From IMG/VR virus record IMGVR_UViG_2595698945_000001: DNA of 14,937 nucleotides. The stretch is one strand, 5' to 3'. Shown here piece after piece: positions 8-12,153 of this stretch. Each line of letters opens with the position of its first letter. The first letter of the stretch is position 1. A program made the translations under genes and the position numbers. The notes under the pieces are model-generated. The model saw only the letters and a program-made list of their open reading frames with translations, ran no database searches and was not told where the DNA came from. Source of the stretch: a virus. Taxonomy: Duplodnaviria > Heunggongvirae > Uroviricota > Caudoviricetes.

Positions 8-20
8 AAACAATTTGTTT
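8..20. promoter_or_regulatory. Palindromic operator AAACAA-T-TTGTTT, copy 1
   Basis: Perfect 6-1-6 palindrome abutting the RBS of the 33..269 gene; its promoter would lie upstream of the window. Confidence 0.7.
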
Positions 21-32
21 AAGGAGTTGATC

Positions 33-269
33 ATGCTCGGAACCGCAAAAGACATCATCGAAAAGCTGGAGAACTACCCAGAAGACGAGCCGCTGCTAAT
101 GGTGATGTGGCACAAGGAAGATGTAGGTGAAGTGCGACCAGACCTGACTGACGAACAGTGCGTTCAGGTTTTGCGAAAAATCAAAGAGTGCCATGACGCC
201 AACGTCGGCGTGAATTGGGATGTCATTTCTGACACGGCCGACATTCTGTTTCCAAAGGAGAAGGCATGA
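33..269 (+). CDS. Small acidic hypothetical protein, DUF1380-like (78 aa)
   Basis: AAGGAG at 21-26, ATG at 33 (the track's start at 15 lies inside the operator). The pattern M.GT...I...LE.YP.DEPL.MV.W..EDV....LTDEQ...VL resembles plasmid DUF1380 proteins as I recall them. 18 D/E vs 9 K/R. Confidence 0.7.
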   Translation: MLGTAKDIIEKLENYPEDEPLLMVMWHKEDVGEVRPDLTDEQCVQVLRKIKECHDANVGVNWDVISDTADILFPKEKA

Positions 270-586
270 TGCTGAAAATCACCGAATCGTATAAGACGGC
301 GGTGATCAGCACCGCCCACGTTACACAGCATGACTCTGAGTGTCTGCCTAATATCTGTTTCGACCCACTAACAGATCGTGGACTGAATTGGGTACACGGC
401 ACGGAGTACGGATGGATTGTCCGCGCAGGTATGCGTGGCAACGACTGGAAAGAAGAGTTACGTGATTACGGCGTCACATGGCAAACCATCGAGAACATTC
501 AGAAGGTACTGGATGCCGGCTATGACGCGGTTCACTTCGATTGCGACGCCGAGCTGGTGGACGGATTACCAGCCTGGGACTGGTAG
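266..586 (+). CDS. Hypothetical protein, DUF5983-like (106 aa)
   Basis: ATGA overlap with the upstream stop. ISTAH, YGW and C-terminal FDCDA...LPAWDW motifs resemble the mobile-element DUF5983 family (from memory). Confidence 0.7.
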   Translation: MMLKITESYKTAVISTAHVTQHDSECLPNICFDPLTDRGLNWVHGTEYGWIVRAGMRGNDWKEELRDYGVTWQTIENIQKVLDAGYDAVHFDCDAELVDGLPAWDW

Positions 587-595
587 GAGATGATT

Positions 596-787
596 ATGAC
601 GACGGTTGAAGACTTGATAAATGATGTGTTGGTGAATTTAGGGAGGACGCCAGACGAGCTGCTAATAGCAACGGTTTTCGATAGTCTGCCAGACGATGTA
701 TGCAGATTGGCGAAAGAGTGGGGATGGTGTGATACAGAAGTGCGTGAAAGGGTGTACGCTGTGGCGTGGAAAATAATCAATAATTAG
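596..787 (+). CDS. Small hypothetical phage protein (63 aa)
   Basis: AGGAG at 585-589 overlaps the upstream stop and is 6 nt from ATG 596; ATG 590 is too close to the RBS. Contains WGWCDTEVRE. Confidence 0.7.
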   Translation: MTTVEDLINDVLVNLGRTPDELLIATVFDSLPDDVCRLAKEWGWCDTEVRERVYAVAWKIINN

Positions 788-819
788 CTATCAGAAGTAT
801 GGCTTACAAGGAACCGCAA

Positions 820-2019
820 ATGACAGACACAGCATATTCAAAAGCTCTGCAAAAAGAGGTAGATCCGGAGCAATATGTAGCATTGTTGGGTTTAGATGAC
901 AGCACCGTACATGCCTTTGCTCGTGAAGATGTCGTCTGTCCTATATGTGAAACTGGCGGCGGTTCCTATGTAAGAGCATCTGTAAGCGGCGCTTATCGCA
1001 AAAAGGCCCATTTCAGGTTTGCGGGGGATGACGATATCAGCGCACATCACCCATCTTGTGATTTTTATGGCGATCGGCTTTCTAATGAGGTCAGTCAACA
1101 TCTTGTATCGTTCACTACGGAACGCACTAAAATCACTCATGTGATCAGAAAGATGGTGTGCGCAGGCATTCAAGAAAACATCTTCACGCAAGAGGCAATG
1201 CGCAATATGAGGCAATGGTTCTTTGCTAAACGTTGCGAGTCAGCTTTCGAAATTGTCTTGAGTGAAGAGCAAATCGATTGGCTGGCCTATATCGTTGAGC
1301 TGCCTGTTTATCCATATGCGTGGCCCAGAGATGAAATTATACCTTTCCATCCAATGCAGGCTATCGTGCCTGGTTTCGATTGGGGTAAGGCTATTGCGAG
1401 AGAAACGGTAAGATTGCATCAAAAGACGTTGAAGCGACTGGAAGAACTAAACCTTCACAGGAAGCACATTGTAGAACTGCAAAGTTATGTCTCAAAAACC
1501 AAACATGCCACCCTTTTAGACCCTGAGCTATTGAAAGAAGAGTATGCAAAGACCCTTCAACTAAACTCTTTCATTATCAATAACTACATAGAATTTCAGA
1601 ATAAGTCGGTTAAAGACAGAGCAAGTGGAGAGGAAAAGTTGCTCGCATTTTCAGCCTTGCTGTTGTTCGTTGCCGACTGGGATATCGATGAGGCAATTGC
1701 GAAGTTTTCTGTCATTGCCAATGTTCGGCACGTAGAGGATTTGCTTGCCGGCAACTTCATGGGCTTGAACCCTTATTTTAAGTTTTCAATTGCTAATACG
1801 GCCAAAGCACTACAGGACAACTGGCCGATTGATTATCGGGAACTGGAAGAATGGCAGGTCGAACAGTCTATGAGAGAGGCGTATGTAGAGCACAGTTTGA
1901 AGTTAGCGACGCCGCTGCCTCAGTTAAAGCCGGATTTATACGTGACGAAGCATTTAGAATTTGAGAGAAGAGAGGCTGAGTCAGCGCGCTGGATAGCTAG
2001 TGTTCTCTCTAATAGTTAG
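820..2019 (+). CDS. Hypothetical protein with N-terminal CxxC...HF...H..C putative Zn-binding (CoiA-N-like) module (399 aa)
   Basis: Long ORF; AAGGA at 808-812 favours ATG 820 over 799. Motif VCPICE...KKAHFRF...HHPSCDFY. AT-richer than its neighbours (sampled lines 1441 and 1561: 23/60 and 17/60 GC). Confidence 0.8.
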   Translation: MTDTAYSKALQKEVDPEQYVALLGLDDSTVHAFAREDVVCPICETGGGSYVRASVSGAYRKKAHFRFAGDDDISAHHPSCDFYGDRLSNEVSQHLVSFTTERTKITHVIRKMVCAGIQENIFTQEAMRNMRQWFFAKRCESAFEIVLSEEQIDWLAYIVELPVYPYAWPRDEIIPFHPMQAIVPGFDWGKAIARETVRLHQKTLKRLEELNLHRKHIVELQSYVSKTKHATLLDPELLKEEYAKTLQLNSFIINNYIEFQNKSVKDRASGEEKLLAFSALLLFVADWDIDEAIAKFSVIANVRHVEDLLAGNFMGLNPYFKFSIANTAKALQDNWPIDYRELEEWQVEQSMREAYVEHSLKLATPLPQLKPDLYVTKHLEFERREAESARWIASVLSNS

Positions 2020-2377
2020 GGCGTTTATCTGAGTAAAACACAACCCGTTGACATTGGCGGTCACAAATTGAGGATTTCTATAAGAGTCCGTTGATCGCCA
2101 CTTTCCCCACCCCTCCAACCTACCCCAGCCCAGGCGTGACAAGGCATTTAAGCCAATTACACCCATAAGAAAACAAATAAATAACACATCAACGAAATGT
2201 CAACGATTTTCCCTGATTTGGTCTAAAAAGTTGACGTTTTCGCACGCCATCTCTTATACCCAAAATCCTGCGCACCAGAATCCATCTCCCTGCGACCAAA
2301 ACGTCAAAAACGACTCGTGATACTACCCAAAAATAGACATGCTCAGAAGCGCTCCCGTTGCGTTATATTGGATATCT

Positions 2378-2390
2378 AAACAAGTTGTTT
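2378..2390. promoter_or_regulatory. Palindromic operator AAACAA-G-TTGTTT, copy 2, plus half-site at 2403-2411
   Basis: Perfect palindrome; TATATT at 2364-2369 just upstream; no credible CDS downstream. Confidence 0.6.
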
Positions 2391-2426
2391 TCAGGTACAG
2401 GAAAACAAGTTAACCACACCCACAGG

Positions 2427-2836
2427 AAACCCAGAGACGCCATTACCCAAAATCCCGGAAACACCCACCTCTTCCTGTCAGGCTACCGGAAAGACCCACC
2501 TCTTTGCCCCAGGCTACAGACCACCCACCTAATCTTCCCTGGCAATCGAGAACATAGCTCGCGCACGCAAACCCAGAGACGCCATTACCCAATACACGGA
2601 GAAGAACAGCCAGAACGAAACCCCTGACAAACCCAGACCAGAACAGGAACCGTCGCAATCTCGTTTACCCACCATTACCCCGAAAGGGAGCGCAAATTCC
2701 TGAATAGCAGGGAACGCCATTACTTCATATGCGGAGAACAACAAAAGCGCCCTACTGCCATTACCCACACTTCCATCATTTCACGTAAACGAAGAGAAAA
2801 GCGCACCTGCCATTACTCCATACACGGAGAAGAACA
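2427..2836 (+). repeat. Non-coding mosaic of direct repeats
   Basis: 24-bp exact repeat at 2427-2450 and 2569-2592; 31-bp tandem units at 2457-2487 and 2488-2518; 28-bp units at 2581, 2716 and 2809; CCATTAC six times. Confidence 0.85.
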
Positions 2837-3132
2837 CTCACCAAAACGACGAGAACGACCCAGACGAAAACACAGAGAAGAGCCACCTCAAGAAGAACGA
2901 AACCACATACGCCGGTAGAGAGAACAAACCTCCCGTTTCACCCAAAGAAATACTCGCCGTATAGAGCGTTATCAGGGGAAGGTATACGCCCCCATAAGAG
3001 GGAGAATTAGTGGTAGGTATAAGTGGGAAGGGGAAGAGGGGGATCGCTACTTTCTCCGTAGAAATTCAAGCCATAGTTTTCATCCCCCGTGACGTCCCTT
3101 TTCACCCCTTCGGTCAGCCTTCGGGCCATCCA

Positions 3133-3261
3133 GGGAAAAGGCCATGTCCCTTTTCAGAAACGGGAGCGTCGCCGCAGGGAAAAGGCTGGAGGTTTTCAGG
3201 GAAACGGTGGGAATCCCGCTATACGAACCGGGAAAAGGCTGGCTGCCGGTCGGGGAACGGG
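3133..3261 (+). repeat. Cluster of GGGAAA(A/C)GG motifs
   Basis: Copies at 3133, 3177, 3199 and 3230; variants at 3156 and 3252; related copies near 6733, 6766 and 6788. Confidence 0.75.
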
Positions 3262-3448
3262 TACATCCCGGTACAGAGAGAGGGACGGCTGCGGGAGTAT
3301 GCCTTATTCCTCATTCACCTGAAGAGTGCGGGAAATGGTGAATCCCGCAGTTGAGCGTTGAGACCAGATCAGCTTCGCACGCTCATGTCGGGAAGCCAGA
3401 TCTAGTGTAAAGGGTTACGGGTTTTGGTGGCGAAATCGCCGATGACGC

Positions 3449-3691
3449 TTATTCGAAAATCTCACTGCCCTGATTCGCATCGTCCCTGTTGTCCCACAAA
3501 TCATCGAGCGCCTCTTCTCTTGTCCCGAAGGGGCCGGAGACGACAGGTGCGTCTGAACTGGTGTCGTCCAGCTCTGTATAAATCTGACCGTTGGTCAAAA
3601 TGATGCGTCCGACAGCGATGCCGCCATGTAGCAACTCGCCTCTCTCGGCGTCGATGCTGAAGTACCCGTCTGTGTAGTCTTTATTGCTCAT
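3449..3691 (-). CDS. Small acidic hypothetical protein (80 aa)
   Basis: GAGGG RBS upstream of GTG 3694/ATG 3691; globular-looking sequence; 18 D/E vs 5 K/R. Confidence 0.7.
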   Translation of the reverse strand: MSNKDYTDGYFSIDAERGELLHGGIAVGRIILTNGQIYTELDDTSSDAPVVSGPFGTREEALDDLWDNRDDANQGSEIFE

Positions 3692-3784
3692 CACATTCCC
3701 TCTGAGTTAGCCAGATACATACATAGCAATAAATCGGCACAAGCACATCAGCCTTTAAGCAATTCTTTTCCCCCGTTTTCTTAT

Positions 3785-3819
3785 TGCGATAATAACACCA
3801 TCAAGAAAACAACGTGTTT
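3785..3819 (+). promoter_or_regulatory. Extended -10 promoter (TG-C-GATAAT) plus operator AAACAA-C-GTGTTT
   Basis: TG 3785-3786, -10 at 3788-3793, 13-nt gap, operator 3807-3819 (1 mismatch). Confidence 0.7.
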
Positions 3820-3836
3820 AGATAATGGGGAAACAC

Positions 3837-4052
3837 ATGTACAAGCATCTGAATATCAGCATCACCCTCTGTGGCGAGGAAGCGTCCTCCGAGTGTGAGA
3901 TCTCCCTCGATGACGTTATCCGCTCTCAGGATGTAGCTGGTCGCGTGGCGACGCTCATCTCTGAAGGATACAGAGAAGGGACGTTTGATTTCCATATCGA
4001 GGACAACCCAATGTCCGTCGCGTGGAACTGCACGACGTCAGAAACGAAGTGA
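3837..4052 (+). CDS. Small acidic hypothetical protein (71 aa)
   Basis: Directly after promoter-operator module 3785-3819. GGGG at 3827-3830 is 6 nt before ATG 3837 (alternative ATG 3825). 13 D/E vs 5 K/R. Confidence 0.7.
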   Translation: MYKHLNISITLCGEEASSECEISLDDVIRSQDVAGRVATLISEGYREGTFDFHIEDNPMSVAWNCTTSETK

Positions 4053-4062
4053 GGGTGAAGAG

Positions 4063-4281
4063 ATGATTAAGATGCCTGTGATGGTTGAGGTGTGGAGCGT
4101 GGATTCCCTGGCTGAGTGCCTGGATGCAGTGGGGCCGGAGCTGTATCGCAAATTGTGGTCGTTCGTCCCGGCTGAAGGGGAATCACCCAAAGGGAAGGAG
4201 ATCTGGCACCTGCTCAGTGAAGATGAACAGCGGGAGCTGGTGGACGCGGTACACATTGAGTTCCCGGACGACGAAGATTAA
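4063..4281 (+). CDS. Small acidic hypothetical protein (72 aa)
   Basis: GAGGG/GAAGAG upstream of ATG 4063, 10 nt after the previous stop; followed by a terminator. 18 D/E vs 6 K/R, acidic C-terminus PDDED. The track start at 3985 overlaps the upstream gene. Confidence 0.75.
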   Translation: MIKMPVMVEVWSVDSLAECLDAVGPELYRKLWSFVPAEGESPKGKEIWHLLSEDEQRELVDAVHIEFPDDED

Positions 4282-4286
4282 GAGTG

Positions 4287-4310
4287 AGGCCATCAGCACG
4301 GTGGCTTTTT
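4287..4310 (+). terminator. Intrinsic terminator
   Basis: GGCCATC/GGTGGCT stem (G-U pairs) plus T tract directly after stop 4281. Confidence 0.65.
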
Positions 4311-4373
4311 GCTGTTTGCAACCTCCGGGGCAGCGCAGCGCCGTAACGCTATGCTTTGTAGCCGTTTTCTCGC

Positions 4374-4409
4374 TGGTATTATTTACACAAATAAGAAAAC
4401 AAGTTGTTT
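4374..4409 (+). promoter_or_regulatory. Extended -10 promoter (TG-G-TATTAT) plus operator AAACAA-G-TTGTTT
   Basis: TG 4374-4375, -10 at 4377-4382, 14-nt gap, perfect operator 4397-4409. Confidence 0.7.
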
Positions 4410-4421
4410 ACGGAGTGAATT

Positions 4422-4733
4422 ATGAAAAACGCGATGATCACCAAACTGAGTGCGGGCCAGCCACGTAAAGAAAAACCAACCGCAATGAGCCAACTGACCC
4501 TGCTCGATATCATCGCCAATGGCACTGCCATTCGCCTGTTCAAAGAGACGCTGGTCTCGTTCGACAATGGTTCCCGCACGCGTTACGTCATGAGTGTGCG
4601 TCGCCAGAGTGGAAGAGGGTGGATGGCAAAACAAGTTATCTGGCCGGAAGGAGAACTGGAAATGGCGCTACTGGAGGCGAACAAAGTCGCCCAGCAAGAA
4701 ATCCAGCGTGCTTCTCTTCTGGCGACAGCCTGA
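4422..4733 (+). CDS. Hypothetical protein (103 aa)
   Basis: GGAG at 4412-4415 directly after the operator, ATG 4422, terminator at 4766-4793. Confidence 0.75.
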   Translation: MKNAMITKLSAGQPRKEKPTAMSQLTLLDIIANGTAIRLFKETLVSFDNGSRTRYVMSVRRQSGRGWMAKQVIWPEGELEMALLEANKVAQQEIQRASLLATA

Positions 4734-4765
4734 CATGTGCAAAAGCGATTAGTCGACCCTACGAC

Positions 4766-4793
4766 AGCCCCGTTCATCCTTCGGGGCTTTTTT
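4766..4793 (+). terminator. Intrinsic terminator
   Basis: AGCCCCG-9 nt-CGGGGCT followed by TTTTT. Confidence 0.8.
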
Positions 4794-4804
4794 AGTCTCC
4801 TGTA

Positions 4805-4837
4805 TTGTAAGTACATACCTATGACAATAATATAGGT
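4805..4837 (+). promoter_or_regulatory. Predicted sigma70 promoter TTGTAA-17-TAATAT overlapped by inverted repeat ACCTAT/ATAGGT
   Basis: -35 at 4805-4810, -10 at 4828-4833; IR arms 4817-4822 and 4832-4837; lies between a terminator and the 4861 gene. Confidence 0.5.
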
Positions 4838-4860
4838 TAGTCAACTACAGGGAGATAAAG

Positions 4861-5256
4861 ATGACTGTTTTACGCGAAAATCTTGTGCTGGATTTACATT
4901 ATGCGTCCGAAACCACCTTCGGCGAGAAAGTTGCCAAACTGACCGTCGTTCTGCGTGACAACACTACCGGAACGGAGGTTCATACCAGCACCTTAGTGCG
5001 CGAGGGGGAAGGTGAAAGCGCGGTATACACCGTAGGTTATCAGAACATCAGCAACGCAACCGACCCGCTGCTGCTAAAGCTGGAAGCGTATTTCCGCACC
5101 GCGGACAAGGCGATGTTCGATAAGCTGATGACCAGAGTGGATACGCTGTTTACCTCTGATTTGAACTCTAACAGCACCTGGATGGGTCAATACGGTCTGC
5201 GTATCGTTTCCAGCGCGATGGTAGACGAATTTATTCCCGAAAGCGTGTTTGAATAA
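4861..5256 (+). CDS. Hypothetical protein (131 aa)
   Basis: GGGAG RBS at 4850-4854, own predicted promoter at 4805-4833, terminator at 5264-5289. Confidence 0.8.
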   Translation: MTVLRENLVLDLHYASETTFGEKVAKLTVVLRDNTTGTEVHTSTLVREGEGESAVYTVGYQNISNATDPLLLKLEAYFRTADKAMFDKLMTRVDTLFTSDLNSNSTWMGQYGLRIVSSAMVDEFIPESVFE

Positions 5257-5263
5257 TCCCTCC

Positions 5264-5289
5264 AATGGCGCGTACCCCGCGCCATTTTC
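5264..5289 (+). terminator. Intrinsic terminator
   Basis: AATGGCGCG-5 nt-CGCGCCATT with T tail, 7 nt after stop 5256. Confidence 0.75.
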
Positions 5290-5315
5290 TTATCCCCGAT
5301 AACAAAATGTTTTAT

Positions 5316-5363
5316 GCCTTATCCACACTGCGATAATTAAACCAACAAGAAAACAAGATGTTT
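5316..5363 (+). promoter_or_regulatory. Extended -10 promoter (TG-C-GATAAT) plus operator AAACAA-G-ATGTTT; contains DnaA box TTATCCACA
   Basis: -10 at 5332-5337, 13-nt gap, operator 5351-5363 (1 mismatch), DnaA box 5319-5327, degenerate extra operator at 5300-5312. Confidence 0.7.
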
Positions 5364-5382
5364 ACGCATGGAGGATATGCAC

Positions 5383-5664
5383 ATGACCGATTTCACTATC
5401 TCACCTAAAGCTGAAAACGTATGGCTGGAATCCTGGCTCGACCTGTCGCCGGAAGAGCAGCAGGAAATGGATCACATTGAACAGGACGAACAATGTGATG
5501 CCCGCTTCTTCCGCTTTGAGGATAGCGTTTATGACATTGCCGACTTCATGCGCGATGACCGCTTCCCGGACTGGCACGCAGGCTACCCATTAAATGCCTT
5601 CGCCATGCTGATGATCCGCGTGGATGGCTCCGGCGATACCATCGACGTCGGTCTGCTCCACTAA
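5383..5664 (+). CDS. Small strongly acidic hypothetical protein (93 aa)
   Basis: GGAGGA at 5370-5375 is 7 nt before ATG 5383; follows a promoter-operator module. 22 D/E vs 6 K/R; aromatic-rich core RFFRFEDSVYDIADFMR. Confidence 0.8.
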   Translation: MTDFTISPKAENVWLESWLDLSPEEQQEMDHIEQDEQCDARFFRFEDSVYDIADFMRDDRFPDWHAGYPLNAFAMLMIRVDGSGDTIDVGLLH

Positions 5665-5671
5665 GAGAACG

Positions 5672-5695
5672 AGGCCACCATGCTGGTGGTCTTTT
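5672..5695 (+). terminator. Intrinsic terminator between convergent genes
   Basis: AGGCCACCA-TGC-TGGTGGTCT plus TTT between stops 5664 and 5694. Confidence 0.7.
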
Positions 5696-5966
5696 ATGGC
5701 ATCTTTGCGAGCTTCATCATTTTGGCGAAGTCAATGGATAATTCGGCCAGCGGCTTCAATTCTGTTTTTTGTGCCCAGAAGTTGGGAGATCTGCCCACTA
5801 CATACGAAAGTCGATAAGCATCTTCGTCGGTAATCGGCTTTCTCTGCTCCAGAAGGGCTGTTGCTTGCTCGATACTCACAGCCATGCTGCGAGCCAGTAA
5901 TTCAACGTCGATACCGAAATCGTCATAAATGCCGTCTAAAAAATCTTTCACATCACGCTGTGACAT
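5694..5966 (-). CDS. HigA/XRE-family helix-turn-helix protein, no partner toxin (90 aa)
   Basis: AAGGAG RBS. LARSMAVS...LLEQRKPITDEDAYRLSYVVGRSPNFW follows the HigA pattern LA..MGVS....L.G+..IT...A.RL...G.SP.FW. Confidence 0.8.
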   Translation of the reverse strand: MSQRDVKDFLDGIYDDFGIDVELLARSMAVSIEQATALLEQRKPITDEDAYRLSYVVGRSPNFWAQKTELKPLAELSIDFAKMMKLAKMP

Positions 5967-6127
5967 ACGAGTGTCTCCTTAAAGTAGTAAGGTAGCGAGT
6001 ATAAGCAAAGTTACATTTAGAATGTGAATACCCCGCAGACTAAAAACACCCACCTCTTACCGCCAGGCTACCGAACTACCCTCCGACTCCCTGCAGGCCA
6101 CCAGCAGCCGGAACAGAACGCTTGGAC

Positions 6128-6175
6128 GCCTTATGCGCGTAGCGATAATTAAACCAACAAGAAAACAAGTTGTTT
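6128..6175 (+). promoter_or_regulatory. Promoter (GATAAT) plus operator AAACAA-G-TTGTTT
   Basis: -10 at 6144-6149, 13-nt gap, perfect operator 6163-6175; 6143-6176 matches 5331-5364 at 33/34 positions. Confidence 0.7.
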
Positions 6176-6189
6176 AAAGGATTATCACC

Positions 6190-6672
6190 ATGAATTTTAT
6201 CGCTACTGTTAACACCCCTGCGCATGGCCATATTTCTGTGACGTTCTCTGATAACAAGAAAAGCGTGCTGGGCGCCTGGCGTGACAACGTAACCATCGAG
6301 CTGTCCGGGAAAGAGAAACAGCAGATCTCCAATGACATTATCTGCAACCGTCGCCACAAGCGCGTGTTTGAGAAAGCGTATGTCTCCACTTCGGGATTTG
6401 GCGTATTCATCTTCCCGGTACGCAGCGGTCGCTTCTGCCAGTCAAAACTCATCGAGTTCGCCACGCAGATCGCGCTATGGGTTAAAACAGAATCCGGGTT
6501 CAACTTTACCGAACAGGAAGCAGTAGGGGAGGGGATGCGCATCGCCAACAATGCCATCAAGTGCAAAAACGTCACCTACGAAGCAGGAATCGACTCGTGG
6601 AGCGTCTCGTGCGGGGAATATGTGAAAGAGGTGTACGGGAAGAACCGCATTCACATCCTGACTGGTAAGTGA
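6190..6672 (+). CDS. Hypothetical protein (160 aa)
   Basis: AAGGA RBS after the operator at 6163-6175; terminator at 6678-6705. Confidence 0.85.
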   Translation: MNFIATVNTPAHGHISVTFSDNKKSVLGAWRDNVTIELSGKEKQQISNDIICNRRHKRVFEKAYVSTSGFGVFIFPVRSGRFCQSKLIEFATQIALWVKTESGFNFTEQEAVGEGMRIANNAIKCKNVTYEAGIDSWSVSCGEYVKEVYGKNRIHILTGK

Positions 6673-7561: not shown

Positions 7562-8212
7562 TTACGCTTTGAAAGCATCAGCCAGATAGTTATAAAAATC
7601 ATTCTTGATAAAGCGATATTGCTGAGATCCGTTTTTCGCTGCGCCCATTCCTTTGATCTTCTCCACCAGTCCGAGACGTTCACAAAGATTGATTAACTGG
7701 TTGGCTTGAGTATATCCAGCGTCCAATTTAATCTCGTTGGCTTTTTTCGCTTCATTCATCAAATCGAAAACAGCGCCATTTGTGAATGTTTCTAATTCAT
7801 CATTAATCATTTCGATTAAAGCGAATACGCGAGATCCGGACATATCAGCGACGGAATAAACGCATTTACCAGACTTGATAGACTTAACCAGATAAACCAG
7901 CTTTTCGAGTGAATAGCTATTGGTCATTGCTTCGCGGAAAAACACTTCTGGCGCTTGTTTGCTTGCTTTAATCGCGTAGTAAAAGACACCAGCTAATTTC
8001 TCATCATTAACAGCGTTTAAAACGTTGTTGGTGAAGTATGCAAGTTTGGTAGTCGCTGCAAGCATGTTAGCTTTATCTGCTTTTGTGTGCGTACCATTCT
8101 GATAATGATTGTTATAAGTCTGAGTAGCATTATTGGCTGCAACTTGCAATTCATTAGCGATAACTACAGCAGCGTCGATGATGGATTTTTTAGAGATAGC
8201 AACGTTAGACAT
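7562..8212 (-). CDS. Hypothetical protein with probable C-terminal winged helix (216 aa)
   Basis: AAGGA RBS and a predicted promoter at 8291-8318. C-terminal helix-helix-(LCERLGLVEK)-beta hairpin (QQYRF) pattern is typical of wHTH domains. Confidence 0.8.
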   Translation of the reverse strand: MSNVAISKKSIIDAAVVIANELQVAANNATQTYNNHYQNGTHTKADKANMLAATTKLAYFTNNVLNAVNDEKLAGVFYYAIKASKQAPEVFFREAMTNSYSLEKLVYLVKSIKSGKCVYSVADMSGSRVFALIEMINDELETFTNGAVFDLMNEAKKANEIKLDAGYTQANQLINLCERLGLVEKIKGMGAAKNGSQQYRFIKNDFYNYLADAFKA

Positions 8213-8430: not shown

Positions 8431-8543
8431 ACCCTTATATATTTAAAACGGAATCGTGATTAGGGGAGATAAATATAACGGGAAGTGACACATAAAATAA
8501 TAACCGGACTTAGCCGGTTATTACCCTTATAGATTTAAAACGG
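8431..8543. repeat. 21-bp direct repeat ACCCTTATA(T/G)ATTTAAAACGG
   Basis: 8431-8451 vs 8523-8543, 20/21 identical; the second copy contains the last codons and stop of the 8535..9062 gene. Confidence 0.8.
8499..8522. terminator. Probable terminator after the Sm-like gene
   Basis: AATAACCGG-6 nt-CCGGTTATT, 12 nt after stop 8535. Confidence 0.65.
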
Positions 8544-9062
8544 TAAAATCCGTTCGACCCAATCGAACATGACGACTGTCTTCCGACCGTCCCCCATGTT
8601 GAGAGTGACCTGGCAAGCGTCAACGCCTGAAGACACACCCTCAATTTCACGGCCATCCGCCATGTAGACCCTTATAGACTTCTGCATCTCATGAGCCTGG
8701 CGACAAATTTTGAAGAAATCACGGCGAGATGGCCGATTGTCCACATAGTCTGGGTGTACCGTTGTCCGACCCGTGAAATCGTGCGCAATGCCTTCTGTCA
8801 CACCTGATTCAATCGTGCTGATTCGCTCAAGTGGGAGCCTTATACGATTTTCTTTGTCGAACGGGGCAGGGCAAAGGTCGACTTTGTTGCGAGACGACAT
8901 GAGACCCTGAACGTACATGCAGAACACCTGACCATCTTCCATCGTGACCCTTACAGGGATGAGATACTTACGCCAGAACATCAGCGCCTTCTCCACGTTG
9001 GTGTAATCGCGCGGCCAGACTTCTGCAGGAATCCCGTAGGTGATGTCAGTAATATTCGTCAT
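8535..9062 (-). CDS. Protein with two tandem Sm/Hfq-like (SH3-type barrel) domains (175 aa)
   Basis: ATG 9062 lies 4 nt after the lipoprotein stop (the track start at 9098 overlaps that gene). Domain 2, SIRVYMADGREIEGVSSGVDACQVTL...VVMFDWVERILP, fits the Sm1 pattern; domain 1, IPVRVTMEDGQVF...LPLERISTIES, is a more divergent copy. Confidence 0.65.
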   Translation of the reverse strand: MTNITDITYGIPAEVWPRDYTNVEKALMFWRKYLIPVRVTMEDGQVFCMYVQGLMSSRNKVDLCPAPFDKENRIRLPLERISTIESGVTEGIAHDFTGRTTVHPDYVDNRPSRRDFFKICRQAHEMQKSIRVYMADGREIEGVSSGVDACQVTLNMGDGRKTVVMFDWVERILPF

Positions 9063-9549: not shown

Positions 9550-9828
9550 TCAATCGAGGCGTTTTAGAATATCGGCCAGATCTTCTTTGGTCATACCCGA
9601 GTTTTCGTAAATCTTCATGACCTTTTCGCGAGCTTTGGCTGAAGCCTCTAATGATGTAGCTGCCTTATCAAAATCAGCCATCGTCATGTTGGACAGCACC
9701 AGATTAATGATGTCTGCCTTTGACAGTTTTATGTTGCGTTCACGCAGTCGATTCTGAAAGGTTTCCAGCTTGTCGTTTGCTTTTTCGGTTAACTGAACCT
9801 GGCAGTGTATAGCGCGTTTCTCGCTCAT
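9550..9828 (-). CDS. Ribbon-helix-helix DNA-binding protein (92 aa)
   Basis: Starts 2 nt after the helicase stop. The alternating strand IHCQVQL, helix TEKANDKLETFQ and helix SKADIINLVL follow the RHH pattern. Confidence 0.7.
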   Translation of the reverse strand: MSEKRAIHCQVQLTEKANDKLETFQNRLRERNIKLSKADIINLVLSNMTMADFDKAATSLEASAKAREKVMKIYENSGMTKEDLADILKRLD

Positions 9829-11390: not shown

Positions 11391-11472
11391 AAACCTCTTT
11401 CCTTCGTGCCTTTTGTATGGTAATTGGCTATTATAGTAAGTAAGTGCTTATGCAATGGATTGTATCAGAATT

Positions 11473-12153
11473 ATGGGTGTGAAAATTACGATTCTGCAGG
11501 TGGAAGTCGCGAACCTGCGTCCAAATCCCTGGAATACCAACTCCGTTGGGGCGCAAAACTTCGAAAAACTCAAAGGCTCTATCGAAAAATTGGGCTTTTT
11601 TAAGCCAATTCTGGCGCGGGAGCTGGACGGGGGCATTTTTGAGATCCTCGGTGGCGAACACCGCTGGCGTGCCGCGATGGAGCAGGGCATTTCAACGGTT
11701 CCCGTCATCTCCGTGGGCAAAATTAACGACCTGGTGGCCAAACAGATGTCTCTCGTCGATAACGAACGCTACGGCGAAGACGATCAGGTCGCTTTGCAGC
11801 GCTTAATCGAAGAAATCCAGTCTGAAATCGACTACCGGTTGTCCGATATCGCCCCGTATGACGACGAAATGGCGGCAACACTCGCCAAAGCGTCCGTTAT
11901 CGATCTTGAAGCGCTGGAAGCGCTCTCCCGTGGCGATGACGAGCCGGTCGATGAGGACAAACGCGAGAAAACCGAGCGAGTCGGCGCTGAACACCAGACG
12001 ATGCGCTTCAAGGTGACGTTTGATGCGTCAGATCGCGTCGCCGACACCATCAAAACCATCATCAAAGAGCAGGGAATCAATACCGGTAACGAAATGGAGA
12101 ACGCCGGGGAAGCCCTGGTGTGGCTGGTCGACTACTACAAGGAGCGTATGTAA
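11473..12153 (+). CDS. ParB/Sulfiredoxin N-terminal domain protein 1 (about 226 aa; start could be 11455)
   Basis: LRPNPWNTN...LKGSIEKLGFFKPIL...ILGGEHRWRAA is a ParB N-domain with a GxxRxxA motif, followed by an acidic linker and a possible RHH-like C-terminus. Confidence 0.9.
   Translation: MGVKITILQVEVANLRPNPWNTNSVGAQNFEKLKGSIEKLGFFKPILARELDGGIFEILGGEHRWRAAMEQGISTVPVISVGKINDLVAKQMSLVDNERYGEDDQVALQRLIEEIQSEIDYRLSDIAPYDDEMAATLAKASVIDLEALEALSRGDDEPVDEDKREKTERVGAEHQTMRFKVTFDASDRVADTIKTIIKEQGINTGNEMENAGEALVWLVDYYKERM

Follow-up and report, generated by a model that had tools for sequence, protein, structure and literature searches.

Control of many promoters of one replicon through a single short, dispersed operator is already known from omega, KorB and P1 C1. 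KorB of plasmid RK2 binds a 13-bp palindrome of the form 6-N-6 at 12 dispersed operators, some of them just upstream of the -35 element, and the operators of P1 C1 are asymmetric 17-mers. Here we analysed a stretch of 14,937 nucleotides (nt) from a Caudoviricetes phage-plasmid (IMG/VR virus record IMGVR_UViG_2595698945_000001; the whole stretch is hereafter called the window), in which a 13-bp palindrome, AAACAA-N-TTGTTT, recurs at the promoters of small gene cassettes. This operator is a new and widespread member of the same kind of system: one short site is repeated at many of a replicon's promoters, much more often than expected by chance and at a fixed distance from the promoter. It is most likely the docking site of one regulator, encoded by the element, on about twenty promoters, and we consider it probable that the palindrome serves as a double-stranded DNA operator of a two-fold symmetric DNA-binding protein of the phage-plasmid and gates one promoter class. 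In the literature that we searched there is no description of the AAACAA palindrome, of SSU5 or pHCM2 operators, or of the control of lysis, lysogeny and maintenance in SSU5-type phage-plasmids. The first-pass annotation of the window, which stated that no operator had been described for this phage-plasmid family, agrees with that search.

The window matches 807 plasmid records, 144 of them near full length. The top plasmid match is Enterobacter hormaechei pD-CRECL423 (97.6% identity), and SSU5-type phage-plasmids, a widespread family that includes the pHCM2, pMT1 and Cyrano relatives, also match, for example Escherichia phage Cyrano at about 82%. The 109-kb pD-CRECL423 was used as a whole-replicon stand-in for the window, 80 related viral contigs (1.42 Mb in total) formed the broad survey set, and the reversed pattern was the control for motif counts. 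In pD-CRECL423 we found 20 sites (up to one mismatch) versus none for the control, and in the E. coli phage Cyrano 18 versus four, at equivalent places. The viral contigs contain 319 perfect and 275 one-mismatch sites, 594 together, versus 0 and 10 for the reversed pattern. All 20 sites of pD-CRECL423 are intergenic and nearly all lie upstream of a gene on the same strand, the exceptions being one site that precedes a repeat region without open reading frames (ORFs) and one whose nearest gene is on the opposite strand. The regulon had initially been described as a set of cassettes at 8-6176. The shared module stands, but the extent does not, as about 20 sites per replicon serve parA, dnaB, cobT-like, nrdB, DUF4942, alarmone hydrolase and terS genes in addition to small cassettes (pD-CRECL423). 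Directly upstream of the cobT-like promoter-operator lies a perfect 12-nt inverted repeat with a 9-nt loop (L002:18515-18547).

In the nearest 4.9-Mb genome, 13 of 13 perfect sites fall on its 112-kb phage-plasmid contig, where they span 29.8-110.8 kb, and no perfect site occurs in an Enterobacter chromosome or a Salmonella genome. This confinement to the phage-plasmid argues against a host regulon, and a host regulator was rejected on these zero counts; nor do the consensus sequences of KdgR, the LacI family and IHF fit the palindrome. The palindrome is invariant in every lineage carrying it, so that co-variation of regulator and motif is unusable and arguments have to be built on conservation. 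A divergent lineage, the Klebsiella plasmid CP110724, keeps 20 identical sites. The Moellerella phage-plasmid pW18-2-b lacks the palindrome, and in an Acinetobacter phage-plasmid neither the motif nor a FljA-family gene was found. We also considered whether the site is ancestral to the packaging module and rejected this idea: ACAAGTTGT upstream of terS in the lytic phage nickie is treated as chance (two copies genome-wide, two in the control), and three other lytic relatives have no ACAAGTTGT-like site upstream of terS.

Two classes of sites can be distinguished by their flanks and their position. P sites (flanks AGA...A) sit before the ribosome-binding site, 12-20 nt ahead of the start codon. 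D sites have the flanks T...TCT, which are the reverse complement of the P flanks, and lie exactly 51 bp upstream of P sites, over the -35 region and often right after the terminator of the preceding gene. The window itself contains six copies of the palindrome at up to one mismatch, versus 0.06 expected, and none of 200 shuffles reaches six. These are the six positions first reported, with perfect copies at 8, 2378, 4397 and 6163 and one-mismatch copies at 3807 and 5351; the degenerate copy listed with them is likewise present at 5300-5312, with two mismatches and exactly 51 bp before the 5351 site. The sites and the promoter elements that accompany them are the following.

8-20, + strand: perfect P-class operator preceding the gene at 33-269; its promoter is cut by the window start.
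2378-2390, + strand: perfect D-type operator (flanks T...TC) preceding an ORF-less, C/A-rich repeat region.
2403-2415: half-site with the AAACAA arm only, 25 bp beyond the 2378 site.
3785-3793, + strand: extended -10 element TGcGATAAT of the cassette at 3837-4052.
3807-3819, + strand: P-class operator with one mismatch (position 8), 17 nt ahead of the ATG at 3837.
4374-4382, + strand: extended -10 element TGgTATTAT of the cassette at 4422-4733, downstream of the terminator at 4286-4308.
4397-4409, + strand: perfect P-class operator, 12 nt ahead of the ATG at 4422.
5300-5312, + strand: D-class operator with two mismatches, over the -35 region and downstream of the terminator at 5264-5286; the P site follows 51 bp on.
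5329-5337, + strand: extended -10 element TGcGATAAT of the cassette at 5383-5664.
5351-5363, + strand: P-class operator with one mismatch (position 8), 19 nt ahead of the ATG at 5383.
6144-6149, + strand: -10 hexamer GATAAT, without TG, of the cassette at 6190-6672.
6163-6175, + strand: perfect P-class operator, 14 nt ahead of the ATG at 6190.

The shared module proposed in the first-pass annotation (extended -10, 13-14 nt, palindrome, ribosome-binding site) is supported down to its details. The hexamers GATAAT (3788-3793, 5332-5337 and 6144-6149) end 13 nt upstream of the palindrome in all three cases and TATTAT (4377-4382) ends 14 nt upstream, a TG lies one base upstream of three of the four hexamers, and the flank words recur as described (CCGTTTTCT at 3773 and 4362, GCCTTAT at 5316 and 6128, AAGA preceding the palindrome). 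The counterpart of site 8-20 in a relative has a D-class partner 51 bp upstream. Palindrome promoters combine an extended -10 with no -35 match, and it is because of this missing -35 match that a simple sigma-70 scan calls none of the window promoters listed above. Two further features were noted at these sites. The D-type site at 2378 and its half-site are followed, at 2400-2950, by an ORF-less, C/A-rich and T-poor repeat mosaic that could be a non-coding RNA, a centromere or iterons. The promoter of the 5383 cassette contains a perfect DnaA-box word, TTATCCACA, at 5319-5327, between the D site and the -10 element.

The same geometry recurs among the distinct sites of the survey. Of 320 such sites, 146 are preceded by a -10-like hexamer whose end is 13 nt (98 sites) or 14 nt (48 sites) away, and the arms are separated by a single nucleotide in 320 of 320 exact cases, with none at a spacing of 0 or 2-7. 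The distance between adjacent sites is either 51 bp (88 pairs) or 25 bp (47 pairs), with hardly any other value; the 25-bp pairs precede terS and the ORF-less repeat region. The sites overlap core promoter elements at a fixed distance, with the transcription start deduced from the hexamer.

A dimeric protein site had been preferred to an RNA hairpin from the outset, and symmetric variation, invariant spacing and an unstable hairpin all support that preference. For variant tolerance, the 594 sites of the viral contigs were collapsed to 58 site families, in which the half-site variants TAACAA, AAATAA and AAACAT occur in the left and right arm in 3 and 3, 8 and 5, and 3 and 11 families, respectively. 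An RNA stem would tolerate C4>U, which leaves a wobble pair, but not G10>A; the counts, 8 versus 5, give no clear sign of a wobble bias. Conserved sites with broken pairs exist as well (TTGGTT in 40 loci, TTATTT in 20). The folding energy of the 13-mer is 0 kcal/mol, and the z-scores of the 5' untranslated regions (5'UTRs), -0.75 to +0.79, are no better than those of shuffles. Moreover, D sites lie outside the transcript of the promoter that they flank. Because variants are symmetric, the spacing is always one nucleotide, no stable hairpin forms and D sites fall outside the transcript of the promoter beside them, the sequence pattern favours a two-fold symmetric protein on duplex DNA.

How could such an operator work? 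It would gate promoters that lack a -35 and rely on an extended -10. With a transcription start about 7 nt past the hexamer, as we infer, the P site would span about +7 to +19, whereas the D site, in inverted orientation and 51 bp further upstream, would be centred near -38. Occupation of either site would keep RNA polymerase off the promoter. Upon entry into a naive cell, where there is no regulator, all palindrome promoters would fire together; as the regulator accumulates, they would be damped, not shut off. The earlier suggestion that the cassettes are silent in the plasmid state thus appears too simple. The parA operon of Cyrano has a perfect palindrome 36 nt before the start, yet it is expressed in lysogens, in which its second and third genes are 9- and 6-fold above the prophage background (PMC9928086 Table 1), and the operator would therefore damp rather than silence. 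One site gating early accessory cassettes as well as partition, replication and packaging genes would provide a direct experimental handle, with about 20 testable promoters.

The element has two promoter classes with two operators. At about 25 other promoters (L002-L004), the spacer between the -35 and -10 elements contains a second palindrome, TAGGTAAGTACTTACCTA, with up to 4-5 mismatches; these promoters include those of structural genes and nrdA and the divergent helicase/ParB promoters. This palindrome is kept in the Moellerella phage-plasmid, and one copy stands just upstream of the XRE gene adjoining the integrase, at the promoter of the XRE gene itself. It is more likely than the AAACAA palindrome to be the classical immunity operator. 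The window holds two copies.

4804-4821: second palindrome.
11437-11454: second palindrome.

The gene at 4861-5256, which encodes a protein of 131 amino acids (aa), is under the second palindrome class; in one small-RNA library of a relative, a contig of very high depth (about 1600x) covers it.

Another question regards the protein that reads the AAACAA palindrome. Our best candidate, which we put forward tentatively, is the 119-aa partner of a small ParA, encoded outside the window. The ParA has 221 aa (AAA_31, MipZ and CbiA matches), and the gene of its partner follows directly, overlapping the ParA stop codon; three elements have a P-type site 36 nt ahead of the start of parA. Of 797 plasmid records, 736 encode the partner with an identity of 90% or more. 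Its basic arm, an SRTMS strand and the start of a helix, FTRSDVIRAAI, are invariant among homologues down to 48% identity, and the divergent CP110724 type, with its 20 identical sites, shares these invariant segments. The Cyrano orthologue, CYRAN_29, is 9-fold above background in lysogens (PMC9928086). The protein is predicted to consist of an N-terminal tail that contacts ParA and a ribbon-helix-helix-like core. It would then act like omega, as autorepressor of parA, as global regulator and possibly as centromere binder, and partition would be tied to gene control, a coupling known from pSM19035 that would be a novelty in a phage.

Several observations weigh against this candidate. The proposed fold is read from the sequence pattern, which fits; neither Pfam nor a sequence search of the PDB gave a match, and the AlphaFold2 (AF2) monomer is poor (predicted local distance difference test score, pLDDT, 64), with helices at 48-61 and 70-84 and the strand unformed. 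The Moellerella homologue (37% identical) keeps KSRT.S.EDEY and SRSDV though its plasmid is without the palindrome; at the parA promoter of pW18-2-b (L106:15350-15390) two direct ATAACAAGGC repeats, 20 bp apart, take its place. For the Yersinia pMT1 type, tblastn found no match to the partner (no Yersinia among the 797 records, versus 62 Yersinia records with the FljA-like gene described below). The sites of omega and ParG are arrays of short repeats rather than isolated dyads, and the sites here are single dyads or 25/51-bp pairs, so not such arrays. Finally, about 80 ORFs of a relative have no Moellerella homologue, among them several small proteins that could be the binder.

Three genes of the window bear on the alternatives.

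8535-9062, - strand: FljA-family protein with two tandem Hfq-like domains (Pfam PF03614, E 2.4e-96), 33% identical to Salmonella FljA.
9550-9828, - strand: 92-aa protein with a ribbon-helix-helix-like sequence pattern and no Pfam match, present in 80 of 80 related loci.
11455-12153, + strand: ParB/Spo0J-family protein with a Spo0J match over residues 13-161, a minor candidate by analogy with KorB.

Another protein of the element might bind the DNA operator instead, be it the ParB/Spo0J-type protein at 11455-12153, the 92-aa protein at 9550, the XRE protein near the integrase or an unannotated small protein; taken together, we regard these as doubtful. KorB sets a precedent for a dispersed 13-bp 6-N-6 palindrome, and the first ParB-like protein aligns with Spo0J through the DNA-binding region, but it is not specific to palindrome-bearing elements, being kept in lytic relatives such as nickie and in Moellerella, both without the motif, and was set aside. 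Lysogens of Cyrano express the orthologue of the 92-aa protein at 12 times the background (PMC9928086). The strand with which this protein is predicted to read DNA, however, varies (H/Y/S/N/F and Q/A/K/P) among loci in which the palindrome is constant, and the protein is only 33% identical in CP110724, so that its nomination in the first-pass annotation loses ground. The same applies to the other regulators then named: the HigA-like protein at 5694 was not found in the parts of Cyrano examined, and the motif-less Moellerella phage-plasmid retains the winged helix-turn-helix proteins at 7562 and 14609. The proteins retained there include the ParB-like ones, one of 88 aa, which lytic relatives without the motif have as well, and one of 216 aa. 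The promoter of the XRE gene carries TAGGTAAGTACTTACCTA and not the AAACAA palindrome. Several conserved small proteins without family assignment are missing from the motif-less Moellerella plasmid, as a dedicated binder might be. A model without any trans-acting factor seems very improbable to us. In it, the palindrome would be a built-in part of the promoter or leader, such as an initial transcribed region, an A-rich translation enhancer or a terminator tail, that spread by cassette duplication. The whole 45-bp module is indeed shared among cassettes, which suggests common descent, and Moellerella cassette promoters keep the -10 and a AAGAAAACAA leader but have lost or never had the right arm, so that the left half may be an inherent promoter feature. 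Non-homologous promoters (dnaB, nrdB, cobT-like, terS), however, share only the dyad, and the right arm, the exact single-nucleotide spacing, the inverted D copies and the quantised 51/25-bp distances have no role in such a model.

The third alternative places recognition on RNA: the FljA homologue would bind the P-site RNA, within the first 20 nt of the 5'UTRs and beside the Shine-Dalgarno sequence, and block translation of about 15-20 mRNAs, repressing translation globally much as T4 RegA does and as FljA acts on fliC mRNA. FljA-type proteins prevent translation of fliC mRNA (PMC2652032). The window codes for a full-length member of this family, modelled as two Hfq-like domains (AF2, pLDDT 85.6, each half matching Hfq), and P sites adjoin the ribosome-binding site, 12-20 nt before the start codon. 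The gene belongs to the backbone and is kept in phage-plasmids of hosts without flagella. The Salmonella fliC 5'UTR contains CAAGTTGT within a weak, AU-rich hairpin of 5 bp immediately ahead of AAGGA; this sequence is missing from the fljB leader. This likeness covers 8 of 12 core positions, which we estimate to arise by chance in roughly 1 in 8 leaders of that length, and is thus weak and not rare. The motif is absent where the FljA family is absent (the Acinetobacter phage-plasmid, the lytic phage nickie) and from Moellerella, whose FljA copy is truncated and 27% identical. That Moellerella lacks FljA altogether had been suggested by tblastn, which found none, but the Pfam model detects the truncated 141-aa copy at 34 bits, and the presence/absence argument was dropped. 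Protein and palindrome are not conserved together either: CP110724 keeps 20 identical sites though its FljA-like protein (L110:11965-12513) is only 34% identical and without the otherwise invariant WPRDY, which makes it as distant as Salmonella FljA, whose genome has no palindrome. The D sites, which lie outside the transcript of the promoter beside them, the two-fold symmetry of tolerated variants without clear wobble bias, the unstable 5'UTR hairpin and the lack of a palindrome copy at the FljA-like operon point the same way. We therefore hold translational repression by FljA at the P sites to be unlikely, and a phage-plasmid-wide translational regulon in which the 5'UTR palindromes are the RNA targets of this orphan homologue to be a long shot. 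If it were true, it would point to a phage regulator of this type as the ancestor of the Salmonella repressor of flagellar phase variation.

The four RNA-library runs over the window consist of assembled contigs, in which starts, strands and levels are unreadable, and one run is DNA-like. At window positions 3697 and 10142 (- strand), contigs of one small-RNA library terminate in the 5' adapter. On this contig evidence, the former may mark a 5' end located 3 nt ahead of the ATG of the gene at 3449-3694, and the latter an internal start in the helicase gene that would serve the 92-aa and FljA-like genes. Clinical Enterobacteriaceae commonly carry SSU5-type phage-plasmids, and more than 800 plasmid records match, including the pHCM2 type and Yersinia pestis pMT1. 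One phage record of the family, vB_Kpn_1825-KPC53, bears a carbapenemase name.

Returning to the preferred reading, a DNA operator of an element-encoded symmetric protein, the nearest parallels are omega of pSM19035 and ParG of TP228. As in these systems, the gene of a small Walker ParA (221 aa here) is directly followed by that of a small protein, which is predicted to have a flexible N-terminal tail and a strand-helix-helix-like core and whose own promoter carries a site. Several dispersed promoters are also repressed by omega, whose sites serve as centromeres too. The spacing of the sub-sites is likewise 7 bp from centre to centre. Here, however, single 13-bp dyads stand at about 20 promoters in place of arrays of 7-10 heptads, a phage-plasmid is the carrier, genes for replication and packaging belong to the regulon, and fold and binding are predicted only. 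KorB and its operator OB on the IncP plasmid RK2 resemble the present system in the 13-bp 6-N-6 palindrome, in about a dozen or more copies per replicon, in the tie to partition and in copies just upstream of the -35 element, as in the D class. They differ in sequence; moreover, P sites lie downstream of the start here, and the ParB-family proteins are also kept in relatives without the motif. P1 C1 shares the principle of one operator type scattered over a plasmid prophage and many operons, whereas here it is the second palindrome that looks more like an immunity operator. With FljA on fliC mRNA and T4 RegA the system has in common a regulator site abutting the ribosome-binding site of the target, and the window contains a gene for an FljA homologue, but symmetric variation, the D sites and the divergent FljA-like protein of CP110724 argue against RNA recognition. 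Lastly, the PeSL (promoter early stem-loop) cassettes of T4-type phages are similar in that every small accessory gene stands between a terminator hairpin and an early promoter of nearly the same sequence, an arrangement that favours shuffling; the module described here adds a dyad operator and also serves core genes.

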